Assembly: GCA_035288865.1 (NCBI GenBank)
Contig: DATDZA010000017.1
Coordinates: 12,672 to 76,671 of the forward strand
Reading direction: 5' to 3'
DNA length: 64,000 nt
DNA from: Candidatus Nanoarchaeia archaeon
Lineage (GTDB): Archaea; Nanobdellota; Nanobdellia; Woesearchaeales; GW2011-AR4
The position numbers were made by a program, and so were the translations under genes. Below are positions 6,985-58,602 of the stretch, in pieces. The notes under the pieces are model-generated. The model was not told the origin of the DNA and ran no database searches. It worked only from the letters and a program-made list of their open reading frames with translations. How positions within the stretch are numbered: position 1 is the first letter of the stretch; the number at the start of each line of letters is the position of its first letter.

Positions 6985-7080
6985 AATTAACAAATTTTGA
7001 ATAAATAAAATGAAAAATATTTTTTAATTTTAAAGGACATTTCGACACCTTTAAATAAAGAAAATATAACTTAGATTAAA

Positions 7081-8178
7081 ATGAAAAAATCCAAAAATTT
7101 TATTATTATTGCATTTTTATTAATTTTTGTCTTCTCAATTTCTGCATGCAGCAATAAATCTTCCGACACCACATCAAAAGAAGAAGTAAGGGTAGGAACA
7201 CAGGGTATTATTGCAAATTTCCTGCCAAACAACCCCCCCGATAAATTACACGCGGAATCTGACAGTGCAAGAAACCAATTTGATGTCGTTTTGGAACTTA
7301 GAAACCAGGGGGCTTATCCTCAGCCTGAAGACTCAGCTGGCGGCTTGGGTGGCCCAAAGGGACGACTATATTTAAGCGGCTATGATCCTTATATTATTAC
7401 TTTGACACCAAAAGCACCCAAGAACGGGCAATCAGCCACAGGCGCGGATTTAAATCAGTTGGCTCTTGATGGAAAAAGCACAATCAATCCCAACGGCGGC
7501 CAGGATATTCTGGCATTTCAGGGCAGTATAGATTATTCTAAACTTAAAGTGGATAAATACGATGTCATTTTGCTTGCAACCGCATGCTACCAGTATCAAA
7601 CTGTGGTCGGCCCCACAGTGTGCATAGACCCCGACCCCTACACAACAGTAAACCAAAAGAAAGTATGCCAGGTTAAAGATACGGTACTTTCAAGCCAGGG
7701 CGCTCCAGTCGCTATTACTAGTATTATCGAAGAGGCCTTTGACCAAAAAACTCAGTTTAAAATAACAATAAAGAACGTCGGCGGTGGAGAAATCATCAAG
7801 AAAGAATCATTGGATAAATGCGACCCTTACGGAAAAAGTACGACTGCTGCAGGCTCGTCAAGTTCTGGCAAGATTGAGAGGGATGATTTGGACAAGGTGT
7901 ATGTCGATTTTGTGAAAATGGCAGATCGTGCAATAACATGCGGCCCATTCGCCGATGGCACCGTAAAAGGAACAAGTGGAAATTTGAGAATGATTAACGG
8001 CGAGGGATTCATAATATGCGAATTGCAGAAATCAAAAAGTGAATATTCTCAGACAAACACTGCTTACACAACCCCAATGGTGATTCACTTAACCTATGGT
8101 TATAGGACTTCCGTAATGCGTACAATGCAGATAATAAGAGAACCATCAAGCACGGGATCGCCAACTTCCAATCCTTAA
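7081..8178 (+). CDS. Lipoprotein, paralog 2
   Basis: ISAC lipobox; ACYQYQT..VCIDPD, GAPVAITSI, LTYGY. Confidence 0.7.
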   Translation: MKKSKNFIIIAFLLIFVFSISACSNKSSDTTSKEEVRVGTQGIIANFLPNNPPDKLHAESDSARNQFDVVLELRNQGAYPQPEDSAGGLGGPKGRLYLSGYDPYIITLTPKAPKNGQSATGADLNQLALDGKSTINPNGGQDILAFQGSIDYSKLKVDKYDVILLATACYQYQTVVGPTVCIDPDPYTTVNQKKVCQVKDTVLSSQGAPVAITSIIEEAFDQKTQFKITIKNVGGGEIIKKESLDKCDPYGKSTTAAGSSSSGKIERDDLDKVYVDFVKMADRAITCGPFADGTVKGTSGNLRMINGEGFIICELQKSKSEYSQTNTAYTTPMVIHLTYGYRTSVMRTMQIIREPSSTGSPTSNP

Positions 8179-11718: not shown

Positions 11719-12573
11719 TTAGGCTAACATGTTGTTTATCTTCAATAATTTGTTCATTTCTTCTTCATTGTAGCAAGTTTCCCTTAATCCGCATTTAACA
11801 CATTTATTCTCATTATTGCAGAAATCCGGCAAATTCTTGTTTTCCAATAGACCAATTACTTCATTTACTATTTGCCTTACCTCATCCTTCATGAAAGGAT
11901 TTATTGCAATGTGCCTTTTTTCTTTTGTGTCAAGGTAAAAAACAAACCCCTCCTTTATCGGCTTCCTGAATTTTTCCTGCAAAAGCATGGAGTAAGCTGC
12001 TATCTGTATGCGGTGCGAAGGCCATACGCCTGAATATGGGGCCCTTCCTGTTTTCAGTTCAAACGGCACATAATCTTGCTCATAAACATGAACTTGGTCA
12101 ATTATTCCTTTTAATTTCAATTCCTCTGACTCAACTCTCAGCTCTGACAAAATTTTCGGCGTCAGTCTCTGCCACAATTCATCTCCAAAAACATTATTTT
12201 TTAGTATGAAATCAAAAACATTTTTTGACCTTGTAACCGATTCTTCCATTATGAACGGGAATGATTTTCTATAAGCGTCAAGCATGTTTAAATTTATTTT
12301 CTTTAACCTGTCTTTGTTGTCCGCAATGCTCTTCCTTAGAAATTTCAGGTGATTTTGCTCGTATAATTGTTGCATTTCCGCAAATTCCATTTTTTTTGTT
12401 ATGGAAGTGACAATAAACTCTTCATTCTTGTTTATCTTGTCATAAGTCTCGTGCCTTATGCTTCCCATAACCAAAGACTCCTTGGGCGGCTCTGCCTGCA
12501 TCAAAACTTTTTCAAGAAACAGCTTTCTGGAGCAGTACAGGTAGCTGGACAACAAAGTAACAGAGATTTTCAT
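11719..12573 (-). CDS. cas4: Solo Cas4-like Fe-S RecB-family exonuclease
   Basis: YLYCSRK, G.IRH, KGIIDQV, PFELKTG, QIAAY and C-terminal C..KC.KC...C (four-Cys cluster). Confidence 0.85.
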   Translation of the reverse strand: MKISVTLLSSYLYCSRKLFLEKVLMQAEPPKESLVMGSIRHETYDKINKNEEFIVTSITKKMEFAEMQQLYEQNHLKFLRKSIADNKDRLKKINLNMLDAYRKSFPFIMEESVTRSKNVFDFILKNNVFGDELWQRLTPKILSELRVESEELKLKGIIDQVHVYEQDYVPFELKTGRAPYSGVWPSHRIQIAAYSMLLQEKFRKPIKEGFVFYLDTKEKRHIAINPFMKDEVRQIVNEVIGLLENKNLPDFCNNENKCVKCGLRETCYNEEEMNKLLKINNMLA

Positions 12574-12595: not shown

Positions 12596-12627
12596 TTTAT
12601 AAAGTTTACGTGAAGATGTCCAGTGGT
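12596..12627 (-). promoter_or_regulatory. Conserved 19-bp upstream motif + BRE/TATA of cas4 (copy 1)
   Basis: Minus strand ACCACTGGACATCTTCACG-TAAAC-TTTATAAA, 22 nt before the cas4 ATG. Confidence 0.7.
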
Positions 12628-12651
12628 TTATTAGACATGTAAAATATGCTG

Positions 12652-12852
12652 CCAACAACAAGAATGGCAGGCAAACACGGATTTTCTCGGTGAAAATCCT
12701 ACTCACAAAGGATTTTTCCCAACTTCGTAAGGAAAAATCCTCTGCATTCGATTTGCCGCCATTGTTGTTGGACGAAAACTGAGTGGAGAACAAAAATCAG
12801 TTACGAAGTTCTGATTTTTGTTTTCCGAATAGGGTTTTCTTCAAGAAAACCC
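12652..12852 (+). ncRNA. Candidate structured RNA (multi-stem, kissing loops)
   Basis: Long closing stem 12652-12675/12752-12771; hairpins 12679-12699, 12709-12741, 12785-12826 and 12832-12852. Loops 12721-12730 and 12801-12810 are perfect reverse complements. A G-U pair favours the + strand. Confidence 0.5.
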
Positions 12853-12958
12853 GTGTTTGAGTCCATTGTTATTTTTGATGACAATTAAATTCTGCACTTT
12901 TACTTTTTAATTATACAAACCACAACCTTTATATTCTACTTATTCCAAGAATTAATCT

Positions 12959-13376: not shown

Positions 13377-13471
13377 TTCTAAAATTTAAATAAAGAAAAT
13401 CAAGATTTTCTAATTTAAAGGTCCACAAATAAAGATTTGCGACACCTTTAAATATTCATAATTAAAATTAC

Positions 13472-14551
13472 TTGCTTATGGACACTGAAAATAAAATAAG
13501 CCTAATTAAGCAAGTTGGCGAGGAAATAATCACAGAAGAAGAATTAAGAAATCTTTTGCAGACAAAAGAGCATCCAATCGCTTATGACGGCTTCGAGCCA
13601 AGTGGCCAAGATGTTCACATTGCACAAGGAATTCTGAGGTCCATTAACATTAACAAGATGACCAAAGCCGGCGTCAAGTTCAAGATGCTTGTCGCTGACT
13701 GGCATGCGTGGGCAAATAACAAAATGTCCGGCGATTTAGGAAGAATACAGACTGTAGGGAATTATTTGATTGAAGTATGGAAGCATTGCGGAATGGATTT
13801 AAAGAATGTTGAATTTATTTGGGCAAATGATTTTGTTAAAGACACAGATTACTGGAAAAAAGTAATGCAGGTTTCAAGGAATTCAACCGTCAACAGAATA
13901 ATAAGGACTGGCCAGATAATGGGCAGAAAGGAAGCAGATGTGCAGCAGGCTTCTCAAATTTTGTATCCCTGCATGCAGTGCGCTGATATTTTCCAGCTAA
14001 AAGCAGATATTACTCAGCTTGGGATGGATCAAAGGAAAGTTAATGTTTTGGCAAGGGAGCTTGGCCCTTCTTTGGGATTCTGGAAGCCGGTTGTTGTTTC
14101 ACATCATATGCTGATGGGGTTAGGGGAGCCGCCGAAATCAAAAGACATTGACAGAGTAATTGATTTGAAAATGTCTAAGTCGAAGCCGGACACTGCAATT
14201 TTTATGAATGATTCCGAAGAAGATATCAAGAGAAAAATTGGAAAAGCATATTGCCCTGCAAAAGTCACTGAAGAAAATCCGATGCTTGAATATTCAAAAT
14301 ATTTAATTTTTGAAAAATTCAATGTGATGGAATTCAAAAGGCCGGAAAAATTCGGCGGAGATTTAATCGTTGAAAATTATAAAGAATTAGAAAGATTATA
14401 CGCTGAAGGAAAACTTCATCCAATGGATTTAAAGAATGCAGTTTCTCATTATATCAATGAAATGGTAACTCCCGTCAGGGAAGCTTTCCATAAAGATGCT
14501 AAATTAAAGCATCTTCTTGAGACGATTAGGAAGTTTGAAGTGACGAGATAA
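13472..14551 (+). CDS. tyrS: Tyrosyl-tRNA synthetase (archaeal type)
   Basis: YDGFEPSG, HIAQG (HIGH-like), YPCMQCAD, GMDQRK, KMSKS, LHPMDLK. Confidence 0.95.
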   Translation: MLMDTENKISLIKQVGEEIITEEELRNLLQTKEHPIAYDGFEPSGQDVHIAQGILRSININKMTKAGVKFKMLVADWHAWANNKMSGDLGRIQTVGNYLIEVWKHCGMDLKNVEFIWANDFVKDTDYWKKVMQVSRNSTVNRIIRTGQIMGRKEADVQQASQILYPCMQCADIFQLKADITQLGMDQRKVNVLARELGPSLGFWKPVVVSHHMLMGLGEPPKSKDIDRVIDLKMSKSKPDTAIFMNDSEEDIKRKIGKAYCPAKVTEENPMLEYSKYLIFEKFNVMEFKRPEKFGGDLIVENYKELERLYAEGKLHPMDLKNAVSHYINEMVTPVREAFHKDAKLKHLLETIRKFEVTR

Positions 14552-27423: not shown

Positions 27424-27455
27424 ACCATTGGACATCTTCACCCAAACTATTTAAA
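27424..27455 (+). promoter_or_regulatory. Conserved 19-bp upstream motif + BRE/TATA of hjc (copy 2)
   Basis: ACCATTGGACATCTTCACC-CAAAC-TATTTAAA, 29 nt before the hjc ATG. Confidence 0.7.
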
Positions 27456-27484: not shown

Positions 27485-27886
27485 ATGACCAACAAGACAA
27501 AAGGCTCTAACTCAGAGAGAGAATTGCTGCATATGTTCTGGGCAAAAGGATTTGCGGCCATACGCAGCGCAGGTTCCGGCTCAATGAAATATCCGGGTCC
27601 GGATTTGTTAGTAGGCAACTTAGTCAGAAGAATGTCCATTGAATGCAAATCATCAAAAGTAAATAAAATATATCTTACAGAAGGGGATGTCAACCAGTTA
27701 AAGAATTTCTCCAAAGTATTTGATGCGCATCCCTGGTTTGCAGTGCGTTTCTTCAGAAAAGACTGGCTGTTTGTCAGCATCGAAGACTTGGCAAAAACGC
27801 CAACAGGCTATGTTATAGATGAAAGGACAGCAGAACTAAAAGGAATTTCATTCAATGAACTTATAATTTATGAAATAAACAAATAG
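27485..27886 (+). CDS. hjc: Holliday junction resolvase Hjc
   Basis: KGSNSERELL..F...GFA.IR.AGSG...PDLL..IECKS. Confidence 0.93.
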   Translation: MTNKTKGSNSERELLHMFWAKGFAAIRSAGSGSMKYPGPDLLVGNLVRRMSIECKSSKVNKIYLTEGDVNQLKNFSKVFDAHPWFAVRFFRKDWLFVSIEDLAKTPTGYVIDERTAELKGISFNELIIYEINK

Positions 27887-52022: not shown

Positions 52023-53534
52023 TTAACTATTATGGTTAGAATTAATTATCTGTAGTCCAACAACTTCTCCAACACGTACAGGTACGGCGTTGCCAATATG
52101 AGCGCTAATTCTTGTCTGATTTCCTTCAAAAACATAGTTGTCAGGAAATGTTTGTAAGGCGGCAGCTTCTCTTAAAGATATGGCTCTATTTTGAATCGGA
52201 TGACCATATCTGCCATTACTTATACTATTACATTTACAGGTCAATGTAGGAGCAGGTTTATCCCATTTCATTCTTCCGTAAGTGTCTCCGTGTCCAGAGT
52301 GAGACTTGTGGCATTCAAGTATAAGCTCCTTTGGCCAGGATTCTCTGCCTCCACCATTTTTGGGCGTGTTTTTCAATCTCAACAAGTTGATTGGCATTAT
52401 ACTTCTGGCCGTATGATTGGGATATTTTGGATCATTGCCTCCAGCTTTAATAGATGGGTATTTGTAAATTGTATCCCTCACAGTTCTGAAAGGAATATTT
52501 TTCCCGTCATAAATCTTTCCCGGGAGTTTTATTTTTCCTTTTCTCGATGCTATTAACATAAATCTGGCTCTGCTTTGAGGAACGCCGTAATCCCTAGCAT
52601 TAATTATAGCGGGATCAAAATAGTATTGATTATCATTTAATATACCAATAAATCTGGAGTATGTTGAATTGCCACCCTTCTTGGTAAGCCCAGGAACATT
52701 TTCCACAAAAAGAAAATCTGGTTTACATTCGTCAACAATTCTTGCAAATTGGAAAAGAAGCGTGGCTCTTTTATCCGCATCTCCTTTGTTTTTATTTTGA
52801 GTCGAGAAAGGTTGACAAGGAGCGCAGGCGGCAAAAAGTAATTTTGATTTTTTCCTGTTTATTTTGAATCTTTTCAACAATTCTTGTCCCGAGATATTTG
52901 TGATATCTTCAGTCAGGAATTTTGCCCCAGGATTATTAAATTCATAAGTATTTTTGGCAGTCTCATCAATATCTATACCAGCCACTACATGTATGCCAGC
53001 GTTCAATAATCCTCTAGTAAGTCCTCCCGCTCCACAAAAAAAGTCTATTGCAACTATTTCTTTTTTTGGAATATCCTTAGATGATTTGATATTTTTTTTT
53101 ATTTTAAGGATGCAATCATCCAAATTATTTTCTATTTCTTGACCCCAAAATCTAAGAACTTTCCATCCTTGTAACCTCAGCTTAATATTTACCTCCTGAT
53201 CCCTTTTTATGTTTCCTTCTATTTTATTTATCCAGAAGGCTTTTCTTTTTTTGATTTGTTTTTTGTATTTTTTCCAATTATAGCCGTGCCAAAACTTGCT
53301 ATCGCAGAAAATAGCAACCTTTTCTTTTACTAAAACAAAATCTGGTTTTCCAGTTATGGGAAAATGTTTTTTGAATTTAATTCCAGCACCGAAAAGTGCT
53401 TTTTCGAATGTCTTTTCCATATCAGAACCGCGCGAAAATATGCGGGACATATTGAAGCTGATTTGTTCCTTGGTTCTACTTTTTCTTGTTGACATTTCTG
53501 ACCCATGATATTGATTAAAAATTTGTTGTATCAA
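52023..53534 (-). CDS. Fusion of Vsr (very-short-patch repair) endonuclease and DNA (cytosine-5) methyltransferase
   Basis: N-terminal MSRI..GKPD..AIFCDSKFWHG..FW..KI..N..RD..GWKVLRFW (Vsr). Then FFCGAGG (motif I), PCQPFS (IV), ENV (VI), QSRAR (VIII), R.ISLREAAALQTFP (IX), GNAV (X). Start is TTG 53534 or ATG 53495. Confidence 0.92.
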   Translation of the reverse strand: MIQQIFNQYHGSEMSTRKSRTKEQISFNMSRIFSRGSDMEKTFEKALFGAGIKFKKHFPITGKPDFVLVKEKVAIFCDSKFWHGYNWKKYKKQIKKRKAFWINKIEGNIKRDQEVNIKLRLQGWKVLRFWGQEIENNLDDCILKIKKNIKSSKDIPKKEIVAIDFFCGAGGLTRGLLNAGIHVVAGIDIDETAKNTYEFNNPGAKFLTEDITNISGQELLKRFKINRKKSKLLFAACAPCQPFSTQNKNKGDADKRATLLFQFARIVDECKPDFLFVENVPGLTKKGGNSTYSRFIGILNDNQYYFDPAIINARDYGVPQSRARFMLIASRKGKIKLPGKIYDGKNIPFRTVRDTIYKYPSIKAGGNDPKYPNHTARSIMPINLLRLKNTPKNGGGRESWPKELILECHKSHSGHGDTYGRMKWDKPAPTLTCKCNSISNGRYGHPIQNRAISLREAAALQTFPDNYVFEGNQTRISAHIGNAVPVRVGEVVGLQIINSNHNS

Positions 53535-53807: not shown

Positions 53808-55301
53808 ATGATAGATTCAAAAGAAAATATAAGCTTATTTGGACAGAAGATAGGAAGAGTAGTGGCATTGGAAGATTCTCCTACGTTTGAAAAAGTCACT
53901 GTTAGGCTTGATGCTGGCCGACGAGTAAGACCTGGAGAATTACTAGTAGTTCCTTGTAATCTAGAAGGATCTCGCAAAGATTTCATAATCTTAAGAGTGT
54001 CTGGAGCCAGAGAATTCAACGAGTATGAAAATCCTATGGATAGTCAGGTCAGAGATATGTTTAATATGAACTCCGTAAGGGGCCGAGATGACCTTCTCAG
54101 AAAGTTTGTTCTTGCTGATACACAACCTTTGGAAATGGTATTGCAGGCAGAGGAAGAAAAACTCATAACTCAAGATCCCACTCAGCTTGTCCATTCTGGG
54201 ACAGAGGTATACAAATTAACCTCAGGTGTTGCTGGAAGCCTTCTTGGGTTTCCAGAGCCAGGAGGTCCATCTTCCATGGTGTTGGGTGATGTAGTGGGAG
54301 AATCTGGTATAAAGGTAGTTCTCGATGCTAACAAGTGTCTCCCCAGACATATGTTAATCGTAGGGTCAACTGGAACAGGAAAATCCTATTTCATTGGGGT
54401 CATTAGTGAAGAACTCCAAAGGCTAGGCATAAGGCACATTAACATCGATATCCATGGAGAAATGGTGAAAGCATCATCTGAGATGGGCGGTAGCAATGTC
54501 CTGCCTGGCAAAGAATTGACTGTAAAATTATCCTCGCTTTCGGAACCAGAAGTTATGGAAATGTTACCTATAACGAACGATCTCCACAAAGACATTGCAA
54601 TTAAAGCATTCTCGAATCTTAAAAAAACAGGAAAAGACTTTGGAATTCAGGAATATAAAGATGAAGCCAGATCAGTTGCTGTTTCCTATGGGTCTAAGCA
54701 AAATACAATGGATATCATGGATGCCAGGATTCAGACATTGGAAAGTATTTCTATCCTAGGCAAGGGTTACGATTGGATTACAGCTCTTGAAAAAGGAGGG
54801 GCTTTAGTAAATATAGATTGTAGGGAAATATCCAGCCATACAGAATTAAAAATAATTGTTGGTTCGGTGGCTAGAGAAGTAATGAATCTCAGAAAAAAGG
54901 AAAAAATTAAGGAATTAGTTTTATCTATGGACGAAGCTCATATGTTCTTGCCTGCAGGAGAAACGTCTCCGTCTTCCCATGTACTTGGAGAGTTAATAAG
55001 GTTTGGAAGACATCACGGAGTCGGAATTATTATTGCGTCGCAAAGTCCCAATGATATAGATAGAAGAATAGCAAAAATTACAAATACAAGGGCCTTTTTT
55101 GCTATAGAAAAAACAGAAATAGGATCGGTGACTGGATTACTGGCGGATACTCCAGAGGATATCATAGCTGCCTTACCCAGATTAAAAACTGGTACATGTT
55201 TATTAGTTGGTGCTAGAGATATTATTAAACATGCACAAATAGTGCAGGTAAGGAAAAGAACATCTACTCATGGCGGCGAAACCCCAAAGATGATAAAATG
55301 A
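53808..55301 (+). CDS. HerA-family (HAS-barrel + FtsK/HerA) ATPase
   Basis: N-terminal IGRVV..beta barrel, RHMLIVGSTGTGKS, MDEAH, GRHHGVGIIIASQSP.DID. GAGGTG RBS before ATG 53808. Confidence 0.9.
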   Translation: MIDSKENISLFGQKIGRVVALEDSPTFEKVTVRLDAGRRVRPGELLVVPCNLEGSRKDFIILRVSGAREFNEYENPMDSQVRDMFNMNSVRGRDDLLRKFVLADTQPLEMVLQAEEEKLITQDPTQLVHSGTEVYKLTSGVAGSLLGFPEPGGPSSMVLGDVVGESGIKVVLDANKCLPRHMLIVGSTGTGKSYFIGVISEELQRLGIRHINIDIHGEMVKASSEMGGSNVLPGKELTVKLSSLSEPEVMEMLPITNDLHKDIAIKAFSNLKKTGKDFGIQEYKDEARSVAVSYGSKQNTMDIMDARIQTLESISILGKGYDWITALEKGGALVNIDCREISSHTELKIIVGSVAREVMNLRKKEKIKELVLSMDEAHMFLPAGETSPSSHVLGELIRFGRHHGVGIIIASQSPNDIDRRIAKITNTRAFFAIEKTEIGSVTGLLADTPEDIIAALPRLKTGTCLLVGARDIIKHAQIVQVRKRTSTHGGETPKMIK

Positions 55302-57286
55302 AGGAAAAAATAAAACAGCTGCTGAAGGGAGCTACTGACGGCCTCACTTTATCCCAAATCAAAGGGTTATTAGGTGATGAGATTACATTACCAGTGCTTA
55401 GACAATCAATTACTGAAATGGAAAATGAGAAAACTGTTGCTTCATTTCCAGGCGAACCTGACAAAATAGGAAGACCTCAAAACTTGTATATGTTGATCGA
55501 AGGTGATAATATTGTCAACATACAGGACAAAGAATATGAGTATGGAGAAGAAAGGAAATTATTAATTGAACTTCTTAAAGATATAACCGATAAATATTCT
55601 ACACTGCCTCCTGAAAAACTGATGGAGATATATGGAGAAACTGCAATAAGGCTAACGAAAGAAAATCCCATTGACCTCTTTTTGAGGTATGCGGATTGGC
55701 TAAAAAAAACTCATGAAGAGGAAATCGCAAAACATGAAGCGGCAAGACTTGCAAATTCTAAAGACGATATGACTCTAAGATATGGATTTATCAATCAACT
55801 AGAGGCTTCTGCACTAGTGATGTTTAATCATCTCTTGGGAGTTCCATTTAGTTTACCTGATGGAAAAGACTGGAAAGCTGGACCATTCCGACTAAAATAC
55901 GATTTTAAAAATCATAAACTGAATTCTAATATGGATCGTAAGATGCTTGAAGAATATCTGAAGATGTCAGTATTTGGTGAATATGTGTTAGAAATACTAG
56001 AATGTGAGAAGCTTAACTTGCCAGCCGTAATAGGTGGCAGTGATGCATCATTACAGGCATTAGATCTTTCAAGAATTCTTCCTTGGAATGTTGAAAAACG
56101 AGAAATGCATTTAGTAACTGCCGTTGGTACTCGATATAACATTTTTGAATCAACAAAGTCAGACGTTGACTGGTATCCTGAGCCAAAAGTGCTCGCCGAG
56201 TATGAGAGGAAAAAAGCAATTTCTGAAGGATATTTAATCCCACCTGAAGAAGCTTTAGGTCAGGATAGCAATATGTATAATAGAATTAAAGAAGCTGCAA
56301 TGAGTTTAAGGCAATACCATAAGGATCATGAAATTATGTTTGAAAAGGAGCCTCTTGCAAAACTACATTTTAGAGACGGAAGAATATTCCCAGTTGAGCA
56401 CAGATTTTATGATTCGATTCAACCAGGCTTACATGGAGATATCGTAAGAATGGCATTAAACCAATTTAACAATATTGTTAATCAGATAGGTGTCAGTGAT
56501 GGCAGGATAAAATATTGTGGCTTTGTAAAAAGACCAGGTATTGCTTTCATAGCCCCAATAATAAGATGGTATATGGGGTTTGGTTCAGCAAATAATGGGA
56601 ATCCATCAATTGATCCCGGAATGGATATTGAAGAATATCTAAAATTTCCAAACTCGGATAGTTTCACAACCGCTTTCCTGTTTAAAGCACTAAGGGAGAA
56701 AACTAAAACAACTGGATGTATTGTTACTTTTAGAACTTTAAGAAGGTTTCAGTATTTGCAGGAGCCATTTATCATAAATCAGCCTCCAACGAATGACCCG
56801 TCTACTTGGCGCAAATCATTTATGGATAAATACTCCGATGTCAATCCATATATAGATGAAACTGGTTTAGATACTTATGCTAATTTATTGGCCAGAGCTG
56901 CTGTTATATCCTTTTACACCAGCCTTGATTCAAAATATGATCCCAGATACGAACCTTCAACCGTAATTCCAAGAGTTGAAATGATGGTACCTTTCATGGA
57001 TATAGGCAGTTTTCCATCACCTGGTGGTATTATTACTAAAGAACGTAAATATGTATGCGACCTTTTAAGCGTCATGTTCCATGAAGGTGTCTTGGACAAA
57101 TATAATGAACAATTATTCTTTATGAAAAAAGATAATCCAGCAATTTTTCTAGTTCCCAAAACAGTCAGAGATGCACATTTGGCTTCCAAGATGATTGCTA
57201 AAGTCTTTAAGGACGACTTCCTTAATTTACTGGTAAGGGAAGCCAGAATATTTTGGTTGGAGAAAAAATATAAGAAAGCTCATTAG
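55298..57286 (+). CDS. NurA-like (RNase H-fold) nuclease with an N-terminal winged helix
   Basis: wHTH-like aa 1-70 (LTLSQI..LRQSI..L..GRP..Y); GGSDAS, FRDGRIFP, GFVKRP, P..V..AH.ASK match NurA motif order. ATGA overlap with the herA stop. Confidence 0.72.
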   Translation: MKEKIKQLLKGATDGLTLSQIKGLLGDEITLPVLRQSITEMENEKTVASFPGEPDKIGRPQNLYMLIEGDNIVNIQDKEYEYGEERKLLIELLKDITDKYSTLPPEKLMEIYGETAIRLTKENPIDLFLRYADWLKKTHEEEIAKHEAARLANSKDDMTLRYGFINQLEASALVMFNHLLGVPFSLPDGKDWKAGPFRLKYDFKNHKLNSNMDRKMLEEYLKMSVFGEYVLEILECEKLNLPAVIGGSDASLQALDLSRILPWNVEKREMHLVTAVGTRYNIFESTKSDVDWYPEPKVLAEYERKKAISEGYLIPPEEALGQDSNMYNRIKEAAMSLRQYHKDHEIMFEKEPLAKLHFRDGRIFPVEHRFYDSIQPGLHGDIVRMALNQFNNIVNQIGVSDGRIKYCGFVKRPGIAFIAPIIRWYMGFGSANNGNPSIDPGMDIEEYLKFPNSDSFTTAFLFKALREKTKTTGCIVTFRTLRRFQYLQEPFIINQPPTNDPSTWRKSFMDKYSDVNPYIDETGLDTYANLLARAAVISFYTSLDSKYDPRYEPSTVIPRVEMMVPFMDIGSFPSPGGIITKERKYVCDLLSVMFHEGVLDKYNEQLFFMKKDNPAIFLVPKTVRDAHLASKMIAKVFKDDFLNLLVREARIFWLEKKYKKAH

Positions 57287-57380: not shown

Positions 57381-58160
57381 TTATTTTAAAGACTCGATCA
57401 ACTTTTCTTGTTTTCTTTTACTATAAATAAATCCAATTTCTTCATAAAATCTTCTTCTGTTATCTATTTGATTTTTAATTCTAAAAACTATTTGATAAGT
57501 GCAAATACCACTTTGTCTAATGCAAGATATTGGATTATAAGCTTTAGCATCTGTAGTTTCAATATTAAATTCATTAAGTATTAATCTAATTTGGTTGAAG
57601 AACTCTAATCCAGCTGGTATCAGTTCTTGTGATTTATTCATCCTCAATCTTAACCCTTTCCAACTATAAGTAGCCCCTTTATGAATACCTTCTAATTCAT
57701 CATCAAATAACGCTTGAAGAAATTTCCTTTTTATTTCTTTTTCACCATTCATAATCCAATAAGGCACTTTAAAATTAGTTAAGACTTTATCTCCAGAAGG
57801 TACACCAATTTTATTTAAACATCTAGCAAAAATACTATCTACCACATCTAATTGAAATCCTTCACGTGAATATTTTCTGATTAAGTTTATTCTTCTACCA
57901 GATATTTTTTCATAAATTTTTGCTATTTCTGTGAGCTTTTCAGGTTCACCAAAAAATCTAACCGTACCACCATTATTTTTAGTCTTACTTATGCGCAGGT
58001 GACCATCTCCAATCAAATGTCCACATATTTGTGCCAATTCTGGACTTGCTTTAAGAGGTATAATTTTTCTTTCTAAAGCATATTTCAGGAACTTTTTGCA
58101 ATTATTGTTCTTATATATTCCTTTTAAATCTTCTAATGTAACTAAAATATTTTCATTCAT
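57381..58160 (-). CDS. Free-standing LAGLIDADG homing-endonuclease-family protein
   Basis: LAQICGHLIGDGHL and FLQALFDDEL motifs; GVPSGDK..F.VP.WI, typical of intein-type LAGLIDADG domains; no splicing residues. Confidence 0.85.
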   Translation of the reverse strand: MNENILVTLEDLKGIYKNNNCKKFLKYALERKIIPLKASPELAQICGHLIGDGHLRISKTKNNGGTVRFFGEPEKLTEIAKIYEKISGRRINLIRKYSREGFQLDVVDSIFARCLNKIGVPSGDKVLTNFKVPYWIMNGEKEIKRKFLQALFDDELEGIHKGATYSWKGLRLRMNKSQELIPAGLEFFNQIRLILNEFNIETTDAKAYNPISCIRQSGICTYQIVFRIKNQIDNRRRFYEEIGFIYSKRKQEKLIESLK

Positions 58161-58169
58161 ATTAATCGG

Positions 58170-58300
58170 CCTCCAAAGTTTTTTATTTCTACAAAGACTT
58201 TGGATTTTTAAGAAAAATAGAGTGTTAAGCGAAACTCCGTAAAAGGATTTTGATATAAATCAAAAGACTTAATTTGGGAGTTTTGCGTATTCTATTTTTC
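58170..58300 (-). promoter_or_regulatory. Structured 5' leader of the LAGLIDADG gene
   Basis: Nested stems 58212-58221/58291-58300, 58232-58238/58277-58283, 58248-58254/58259-58265. Hairpin 58172-58179/58197-58204 overlaps the GGAGG RBS. Confidence 0.45.
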
Positions 58301-58321: not shown

Positions 58322-58353
58322 TTTATATATTATGCGTGAAGATGTCCAGTGGT
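58322..58353 (-). promoter_or_regulatory. Conserved 19-bp upstream motif + TATA (copy 3)
   Basis: Minus strand ACCACTGGACATCTTCACG-CATAA-TATATAAA, identical 19-mer to 12609-12627. Confidence 0.7.
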
Positions 58354-58367
58354 ACAGAATAAAAGAG

Positions 58368-58544
58368 TGCGGGGAAGAGGATTCGAACCCCTGAAGGCAC
58401 TAAGCCAGTAGATATCTCTCCTGCCATGTTTTTTGTCTAGCAGGTAGATAGGCCTAAGCTATCCGAAACGCCTTGAGTTTGGGTGAGTAAATCTCTACCC
58501 CGTAAAGCCCCATTTTAATGGTTTGGCCGCTCCGGCATCCCCGC
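58368..58544 (-). tRNA. tRNA-Leu(CAA) with three introns (58504-58522, 58479-58494, 58414-58471)
   Basis: Spliced product GCGGGGATGCCGGAGCGGCCAAACGGGGTAGACTCAAGATCTACTGGCTTAGTGCCTTCAGGGGTTCGAATCCTCTTCCCCGCA folds as a long-variable-arm tRNA-Leu. The D-arm and 30/31 introns have 4-bp BHB cores. Confidence 0.88.
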
Positions 58545-58602
58545 ATAGCTTTTAGAATAAGAATTTCATTTAAAAAGATTTGCACTTGAATGTCAAAGAA
58601 TC

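Follow-up and report, generated by a model that had tools for sequence, protein, structure and literature searches.

A Near-Invariant Promoter-Upstream Motif Marks Solo-Cas4 and Other Nuclease Genes in Woesearchaeota

Results

Three Nuclease Genes with a Shared Promoter Motif

The window, by which we mean the whole 64-kb stretch of DNA analyzed here (36% G+C), contains three nuclease genes that are preceded by the same motif. The first, at 11719..12573 (-), is a solo-Cas4 gene of 284 aa that matches Pfam Cas_Cas4 at 1e-18 and scores 94 bits against NCBIfam TIGR00372, above the curated cut-off of 65. Its product has the RecB-type nuclease core and the four cysteines of the family, with an N-terminal Cys14 and a C-terminal C-x5-C-x2-C-x5-C cluster, and no cas1/cas2 or Csa3 gene was seen in the window or in the loci fetched for comparison (L numbers below). 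The second gene, at 27485..27886 (+), is hjc, which encodes a Holliday-junction resolvase of 133 aa (profile match 2e-25). The third, at 57381..58160 (-), encodes a free-standing two-motif LAGLIDADG endonuclease of 259 aa (LIGDGHL ... LFDDELEG) whose domain is of the intein type, as it matches the NCBIfam RtcB_rel_intein region at 3e-26 and Pfam LAGLIDADG_3 at only 0.025. These profile matches bear out the gene identities given in an earlier note on this DNA. A comparison by sequence of the LAGLIDADG proteins with solved structures gave no significant relatives. We note that locus L144 (14075-17127) contains a Hef orthologue with an intein bearing a LAGLIDADG_3 domain, and that the free-standing protein of the window is most like intein endonuclease domains of such type.

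Motif copy 1, ACCACTGGACATCTTCACG, lies upstream of solo-cas4 at 12609..12627 (-), with the core CACTGGACAT at 12625-12616. Copy 2, ACCATTGGACATCTTCACC, lies upstream of hjc at 27424..27442 (+) and has a C to T change within the core, and copy 3, again ACCACTGGACATCTTCACG, is found at 58335..58353 (-), where it lies 18 nt past the 3' end of an intron-containing tRNA gene. Each copy is followed, after a gap of 5 nt (3/3), by an 8-nt TATA box: TTTATAAA at 12596..12603 (-), which is 22 nt ahead of the cas4 ATG, TATTTAAA at 27448..27455 (+) for hjc, and TATATAAA at 58322..58329 (-) for the LAGLIDADG gene. Our window search thus confirmed both the positions of the 19-mer and the spacing that had been claimed for it. 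The three copies compare with 0.02 expected, none of 100 shuffles gave three, and with up to three mismatches allowed they are the sole 19-mer matches in the 64 kb; the next-best matches to the 18-mer have at least 5 mismatches in 18. Weaker likeness among the three copies runs on through the TATA box.

Genes in the window start mostly 25-30 nt past the TATA box, which indicates leaderless mRNAs, and the start codons of Cas4 and Hjc, at 22 and 29 nt past the TATA box, likewise point to mRNAs with little or no leader. For the LAGLIDADG gene, the start codon is found 161 nt past the TATA box, after a structured 5' leader at 58161..58300 (-) that is conserved in nucleotide sequence and shows compensatory changes across species. 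It comprises a long hairpin (~58299-58212) with conserved internal loops and, at 58203-58173, a second hairpin in overlap with the Shine-Dalgarno sequence GGAGG. Leaders of ~90-160 nt are common to LAGLIDADG genes of different subfamilies and fall into class B (window, L017, L021, L037, L039, L101, L109, and L148), in which the second hairpin spans the GGAGG ribosome-binding site, and class C (L024, L049, L095, L108, and L120). The long hairpin reads AAAGAGAAyACGCAAAACTsCC-AAATTAAG-...-TTTTAC-GGsAGTTTCGC...TTCTCTTT, with compensatory G-C/C-G and G-C/U-A exchanges. The leader, which has no Rfam match, may act in the control of translation or as a small RNA.

The tRNA gene next to copy 3 lies at 58372-58545 (-) and is the sole tRNA-like gene seen in the 64 kb. 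It spans ~174 nt with at least one intron, and has an acceptor stem GCGGGGA/TCCCCGC, a T-arm AGGGG-TTCGAAT-CCTCT, and a candidate loop CTCAAGG (Leu-CAA). ARAGORN, run on the window with introns allowed, reported no tRNA, and Rfam also misses this gene; at gathering or E-value thresholds, Rfam found only a 5S rRNA (in L043) across the window and 14 related loci. Genes for tRNA-Leu with T-loop introns adjoin motif promoters at L037, L106, and L136. Upstream of copy 1, at 12650-12770, lies a Y-shaped element of 120 nt with a 20-bp closing stem and two GGATTTT(T)C hairpins (z = -6.4), and an inverted partial copy follows at 12801-12877. The element is one of a repeat family, with further copies in L048/L088/L102 (92% identity, in the same place upstream of cas4), L099 (two), L096/L113, and L027, and it could be a MITE-like repeat or an uncharacterized RNA.

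Geometry across Genomes

Contigs from the same strain are identical to the window and are thus uninformative on conservation. We scanned one genome per species for the 18-mer, requiring the exact word, and obtained 43 loci. Every one of the ~28 loci from Woesearchaeota/Nanoarchaeia assemblies has a TATA box 5-6 nt downstream of the 18-mer, and none of the bacterial or other matches among the 43 has one. A metagenome scan gave the same pattern as the species scan, and in all, motif and TATA box are combined in the same orientation and spacing in ~60 distinct promoters, drawn from many genomes and metagenome contigs of Woesearchaeota/Nanoarchaeia. When these low-GC DPANN loci were pooled (680 kb, duplicates collapsed), 61 of 62 distinct core copies were found in one orientation and at the same distance upstream of a TATA box, within 2 nt; the lone exception is an extra tandem copy upstream of the regular one in L110. 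In the aligned promoters, the information profile falls to zero upstream of the motif.

Extra partial copies (gCACTGGACA), located 15-16 nt upstream, overlapping, or inverted, occur in L037, L110, L109, L142, and L057 and suggest cooperative protein binding. A scan of viral contigs for core plus TATA returned 19 matches, all of them chance-like in phage coding DNA, with no promoter-like copies. Three of the ~28 loci lie on low-GC contigs that were binned under Methanosarcinales. Low-GC contigs with Woesearchaeal cas4 or LAGLIDADG promoters in MAGs of that label are L017, L036, and L046, and they are probably binning errors. Public sequencing runs that match the region are DNA runs only, with no match among RNA runs, and our literature search found no description of the motif word or of the regulon.

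The constant geometry also bears on the notion that the motif acts at the RNA level, either as the 5' end or signal of an opposite-strand transcript or as the trailer of an upstream RNA gene. In the window, the tRNA gene ahead of copy 3 and the strongly structured repeat ahead of copy 1 would be in keeping with such a role. We give this reading next to no credence, because over the ~60 promoters the upstream neighbor varies among gene 3' ends, divergent genes, and AT-rich spacer, the motif overlaps the end of an ORF in L024, and the upstream side has no conserved sequence; the one constant is the spacing to the TATA box downstream. Taken across loci, the sequence comparisons indicate that the motif is no local accident of the window and is instead a promoter-upstream element under selection, by which a set of nuclease genes is marked in a DPANN lineage.

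Orthologues Define the Constrained Core

Since the genome scans demanded the exact word, orthologues were also picked by protein similarity alone. All six Cas4 orthologues obtained in this way (71-76% identity) carry (A/T)(C/G)CACTGGACAT in the same place, which upholds the conservation upstream of orthologues that the earlier note had put forward for checking. In these promoters the flanks of the core have diverged and the hexamers behind it differ (TTTCGC, CTCCCT, GCCCAC, CCTCGC, and GCTCGC), so that the selected unit is a core of 10-12 nt, and not all 19 nt. The constrained part is (A)(C)CACTGGACAT, and the CTTCAC tail is invariant only within the clade of the window, with the 18-mer wholly invariant across the promoters of one clade. 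A "weak partial match" noted earlier upstream of hef, TCTTCA, covers only this variable hexamer without the core and is rejected as a site.

Upstream of solo-cas4 the core is kept in 21 distinct promoters, including the six picked by protein, and in these 21 the ATG is located 22-24 nt past the TATA box, as expected of a leaderless archaeal promoter. The gene sits in conserved synteny (TyrRS / 85-aa gene / cas4 / PRC-barrel / RFC-s). The 85-aa gene was considered as a regulator and rejected, as its N-terminus indicates a small hydrophobic protein and it has no family match. In the metagenome contig L054 (633-859), the cas4 promoter and the first ~40 nt of the gene are tandemly duplicated with a period of 209 nt. 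For Hjc, the motif is found in two of five species, that is, in the window and in one of four orthologues. The Hjc orthologue of L141 has ACCACTGGACATTCCGGT at the same position, those of L142 and L144 lie flush against the upstream gene, with neither a promoter of their own nor the motif, and that of L143 has no motif. Among the promoters compared, solo-Cas4 is a member throughout, and the membership of hjc is facultative.

Membership and the Homing Endonucleases

A tally of ~63 distinct promoters gave 21 solo-Cas4 genes, ~26 LAGLIDADG genes, 2 hjc genes, and 2 DNA methylase islands, together with a DUF4258 toxin gene with a DUF2283-like partner and 5-6 short RNAs. The LAGLIDADG members belong to LAGLIDADG_2, LAGLIDADG_3, and intein-like types, several of them with an N-terminal HTH_3 domain. 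Each genome has 1-3 exact copies, and membership varies as it would in a regulon. Most of the members found beyond the window are free-standing homing endonucleases or other selfish genes. Within the window, the core is absent upstream of FEN1, Hef, PriS/L, RFC-s, PCNA, a HerA-like ATPase, and a Vsr-Dcm fusion, and also of RNase J and the tRNA-splicing endonuclease. The earlier note had suggested a DNA-repair/nuclease regulon; a real promoter element common to a set of nuclease genes stands, and a general DNA-repair regulon is not supported because repair genes of the window lack the core.

The Vsr endonuclease fused to a C5 DNA methylase (52023-53495, (-)) and the HerA-like ATPase gene with that of a 662-aa protein without family match (53808-57286, (+)), all without the motif, may form a defense or end-resection module. 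Separately, an upstream word ATTT(C/G)CGACACCTTTAAATA at 7040-7080 and 13440-13477 (+) is common to two unrelated genes, 7081-8178 (no family match) and 13478-14551 (Tyr/Trp-tRNA synthetase), and may be a second promoter-linked motif.

The two methylase islands sit between housekeeping genes. That of L143 (8292-9773) carries the motif, an N6/N4 DNA methylase gene, and an HNH gene between an MBL-fold gene and hjc, and that of L148 (3282-9655) is a motif-bearing island of 6.4 kb with a methylase gene, three genes of unknown kind, and a LAGLIDADG gene between TyrRS and cas4. A comparison of L024 with L027 isolates the promoter from its gene: the flank, motif, and TATA box are shared, after which L024 has a 1.17-kb leader-endonuclease cassette and L027 has 127 nt of unrelated sequence, and the downstream rpl11 keeps its own promoter in both. 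The promoter can thus exist with or without an endonuclease gene.

These loci raise the question of whether the motif is a homing-endonuclease recognition site, or a mobile promoter cassette that travels with or draws in LAGLIDADG genes and is kept uniform by gene conversion. An asymmetric word of 18 bp matches a LAGLIDADG target in size, one clade shows the 18-mer without variation, free-standing LAGLIDADG genes of several subfamilies lie behind ~26 of the ~63 distinct instances, the motif occurs in inserted islands (L143 and L148), and the L024 cassette begins right after the TATA box. We nevertheless regard this reading as highly improbable. Solo-cas4, the sole member that is universal, is inherited vertically and lies in conserved synteny. 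Motif and TATA box do not differ between L024, with the endonuclease, and L027, without it; a homing site would be interrupted or altered in the allele that carries the endonuclease. Unrelated endonuclease subfamilies would not share one target, and the viral contigs have no promoter-like copies. Moreover, the flanks differ by gene class, with no common cassette border, inverted repeat, or target duplication; nothing is shared upstream and the likeness downstream is class-specific, which is not what a MITE-like mobile repeat would leave.

Five motif promoters (L034, L037, L106, L111, and L136) drive putative short transcripts with an A-rich start. These resemble the tRNA-Leu D-arm plus the anticodon or variable arm, with the acceptor strand missing, and in L037, L106, and L136 the tRNA-like RNA is followed directly by a complete tRNA-Leu gene with a TATA box of its own. 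These RNAs may be left over from rearrangements mediated by endonucleases, or they may be functional tRNA-like RNAs.

A Putative Regulator Site

Considered together, the promoters have the features expected of archaeal TBP/TFB promoters, namely a leaderless TATA distance, a constant site position and orientation, and a footprint upstream of orthologues. We consider it likely, on the strength of these comparisons, that the motif is a cis-regulatory element and the putative binding site of a sequence-specific DNA-binding protein that serves a small regulon centered on solo-Cas4. This site consists of the invariant core CACTGGACAT, usually with AC ahead of it and, in the clade of the window, CTTCAC behind it. 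The stretch between core and TATA box comprises a variable block of 6 nt and a BRE-like RYAAA of 5 nt, such that the core ends ~11 nt before the TATA box and would be positioned at roughly -51 to -42, just upstream of the TFB position. Since spacing and orientation are fixed, contact with TFB/TBP appears most likely, and the bound protein would aid or gate their recruitment. The vertically inherited solo-Cas4 would form the stable center of the regulon, with Hjc at times added, and the same element is found at the LAGLIDADG cassettes, the methylase islands (one with HNH), the toxin gene, and the small tRNA-like RNAs.

As to the sign of regulation, activation seems more likely than repression by analogy with other archaeal sites. 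We note that the TATA boxes of the motif promoters are good, so an activator may perhaps be unneeded. The motif promoters were also compared with ordinary window promoters for a weaker BRE, which would speak for dependence on an activator; the latter have no clear BRE consensus, and the idea was dropped. The invariance over 18 nt in one clade exceeds that of usual transcription-factor sites, and concerted evolution through gene conversion could contribute to it.

Because the members are potentially toxic nucleases, an operator at which a repressor silences the nucleases, the homing endonucleases, and the toxin pending a signal, for example DNA damage or a stage of the cell cycle, is a serious alternative, even if we judge it unlikely. 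It would be an archaeal counterpart of LexA/SOS logic, with genes of mobile elements joining the regulon. DNA-cutting and selfish genes make up most of the gene set, the TATA boxes are near consensus, and the extra partial sites could aid oligomerization over the promoter. Strict spacing and orientation point instead to contact with initiation factors and not to simple occlusion. From what is known of the TGM/Tgr, SurR, and Ptr2 systems, the archaeal repressors characterized to date bind over the BRE/TATA or the start site. Sites upstream of the BRE are generally correlated with activation in archaea, as with Csa3a (PMC5587795).

The identity of the binder is where the earlier note had looked to replication initiators, and an ORB-like element bound by a regulatory Orc1/Cdc6 paralogue, as Orc1-2 is in Sulfolobales, seems to us improbable, more so than a repressor. 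The likeness on which this proposal was built does exist, as the middle 8-9 nt of the mini-ORB of Pyrococcus, TTCCAGTGGAACT, read CCA-C-TGGA on either strand (PMC1904270), and Orc1-2 is a proven promoter-binding regulator (PMC9738581). However, the motif reads ACCACTGGAC (GTCCAGTGGT on the other strand) and has only CCA-N-TGGA in common with the mini-ORB; the invariant ORB blocks TTCC and GAA are missing, the motif having ACC and GAC, and its invariant part stretches asymmetrically (..GGACAT) past the dyad. The sites are single, always at promoters, and never clustered, with the copies in the window lying apart at 12.6, 27.4, and 58.3 kb. The Orc1-2 hexamer ANTTTC is absent from the core, and its nearest match, ATCTTC, sits in the variable hexamer. 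A rough tblastn search of the window and the loci with a pseudo-consensus query turned up no cdc6-like gene, and no origin was seen there.

Discussion

To our knowledge, almost nothing is known of gene regulation in DPANN archaea, most lineages of which, Woesearchaeota included, have no cultured representative. The motif provides a probe of 10-18 bp for its binding protein, along with a defined gene set. It is also the first functional clue for solo-Cas4, which is usual in DPANN archaea and whose role in small-genome archaea is open (PMC5704561). As solo-Cas4 shares the element with Hjc and with double-strand-break enzymes, the motif points to recombination rather than CRISPR adaptation.

The notion that selfish nuclease genes captured the switch of solo-Cas4 and Hjc, such that cutting and recombinational repair are co-expressed, is plausible. 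A fuller version of it, which we offer tentatively and hold to be rather doubtful, is a cut-and-repair regulon in which one word would co-switch solo-Cas4 and, in some species, Hjc, and in which homing endonucleases, a methylase/HNH island, and a toxin gene would have repeatedly captured this word for expression during homologous recombination. The regulator could then be an Orc1/Cdc6 paralogue or a domesticated HTH-LAGLIDADG protein. If true, homing endonucleases that borrow a host recombination switch would represent a new strategy for selfish genes, and the regulon would be the first to be defined in a DPANN lineage that is uncultivated, as well as a new kind of regulatory coupling between host and parasite.

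Short conserved words just upstream of the BRE/TATA are known for Ptr2 of Methanocaldococcus and for TGM/Tgr-TrmBL1 and SurR of Thermococcales. Archaeal sites at such a position belong to regulators that recruit TBP/TFB, and the position relative to the TATA box sets activation or repression. The Woesearchaeal motif is like these sites in its placement and in being kept upstream of orthologues; they are degenerate dyads of dimeric regulators, whereas the motif is asymmetric, nearly invariant, and found in one orientation and spacing. A parallel in gene content is offered by Sulfolobus, where Csa3a binds just upstream of the promoters that serve cas4-containing adaptation genes and DNA-repair genes and activates them (PMC5587795). 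Its sites in Sulfolobus islandicus resemble the motif in lying right upstream of promoters, and the pairing of a cas4-containing set with double-strand-break processing genes under one activator is comparable to the gene set described here (PMC5587795). In contrast, the Csa3a sites are imperfect palindromes that serve a CRISPR adaptation module and a CARF-type regulator, and the Woesearchaeal motif is asymmetric and of unrelated sequence, its Cas4 is encoded by a solo gene, and its other members are mostly homing endonucleases.

The DNA-damage response element of Orc1-2 in Sulfolobales, ANTTTC (PMC9738581), is likewise a promoter element that marks a DNA-damage/recombination-related set, although its sequence differs. 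ORBs are defined by the two invariant blocks TTCC and GAA, with a mini-ORB of 13 nt (PMC1904270). Typically, several copies cluster near orc1/cdc6 about an A/T-rich region of unwinding. The central CCA-N-TGGA is shared, and the motif lacks both blocks, is unclustered, is not at an origin, and is coupled to a TATA box. Bacterial SOS regulons under LexA are also joined by mobile-element genes and toxins. In Mycoplasma genitalium, a promoter word of the MG428 sigma-factor regulon is reported to switch on recombination genes, for example those of Holliday-junction enzymes (PMC4446450). The likeness to these systems lies in a dedicated word for recombination genes; the bacterial machinery of sigma factor or repressor differs, and homology is not implied.

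Homing endonucleases can double as DNA-binding regulators, as shown by the autorepression of I-TevI and by the LAGLIDADG-derived WhiA. Many motif members are genes for LAGLIDADG proteins, some of which have an HTH_3 domain at the N-terminus, and by this analogy one of these proteins could in principle be the binder of the motif; the motif-linked proteins are too diverse for one specificity, and they retain the acidic catalytic residues. At the level of sequence, the motif lacks what characterizes ORBs, Orc1-2 elements, homing sites, and mobile repeats, and it has the properties of an archaeal upstream regulator site. What sets it apart from the known sites of this kind is its near-invariance, its strict geometry, and the predominance of homing endonucleases among its members.
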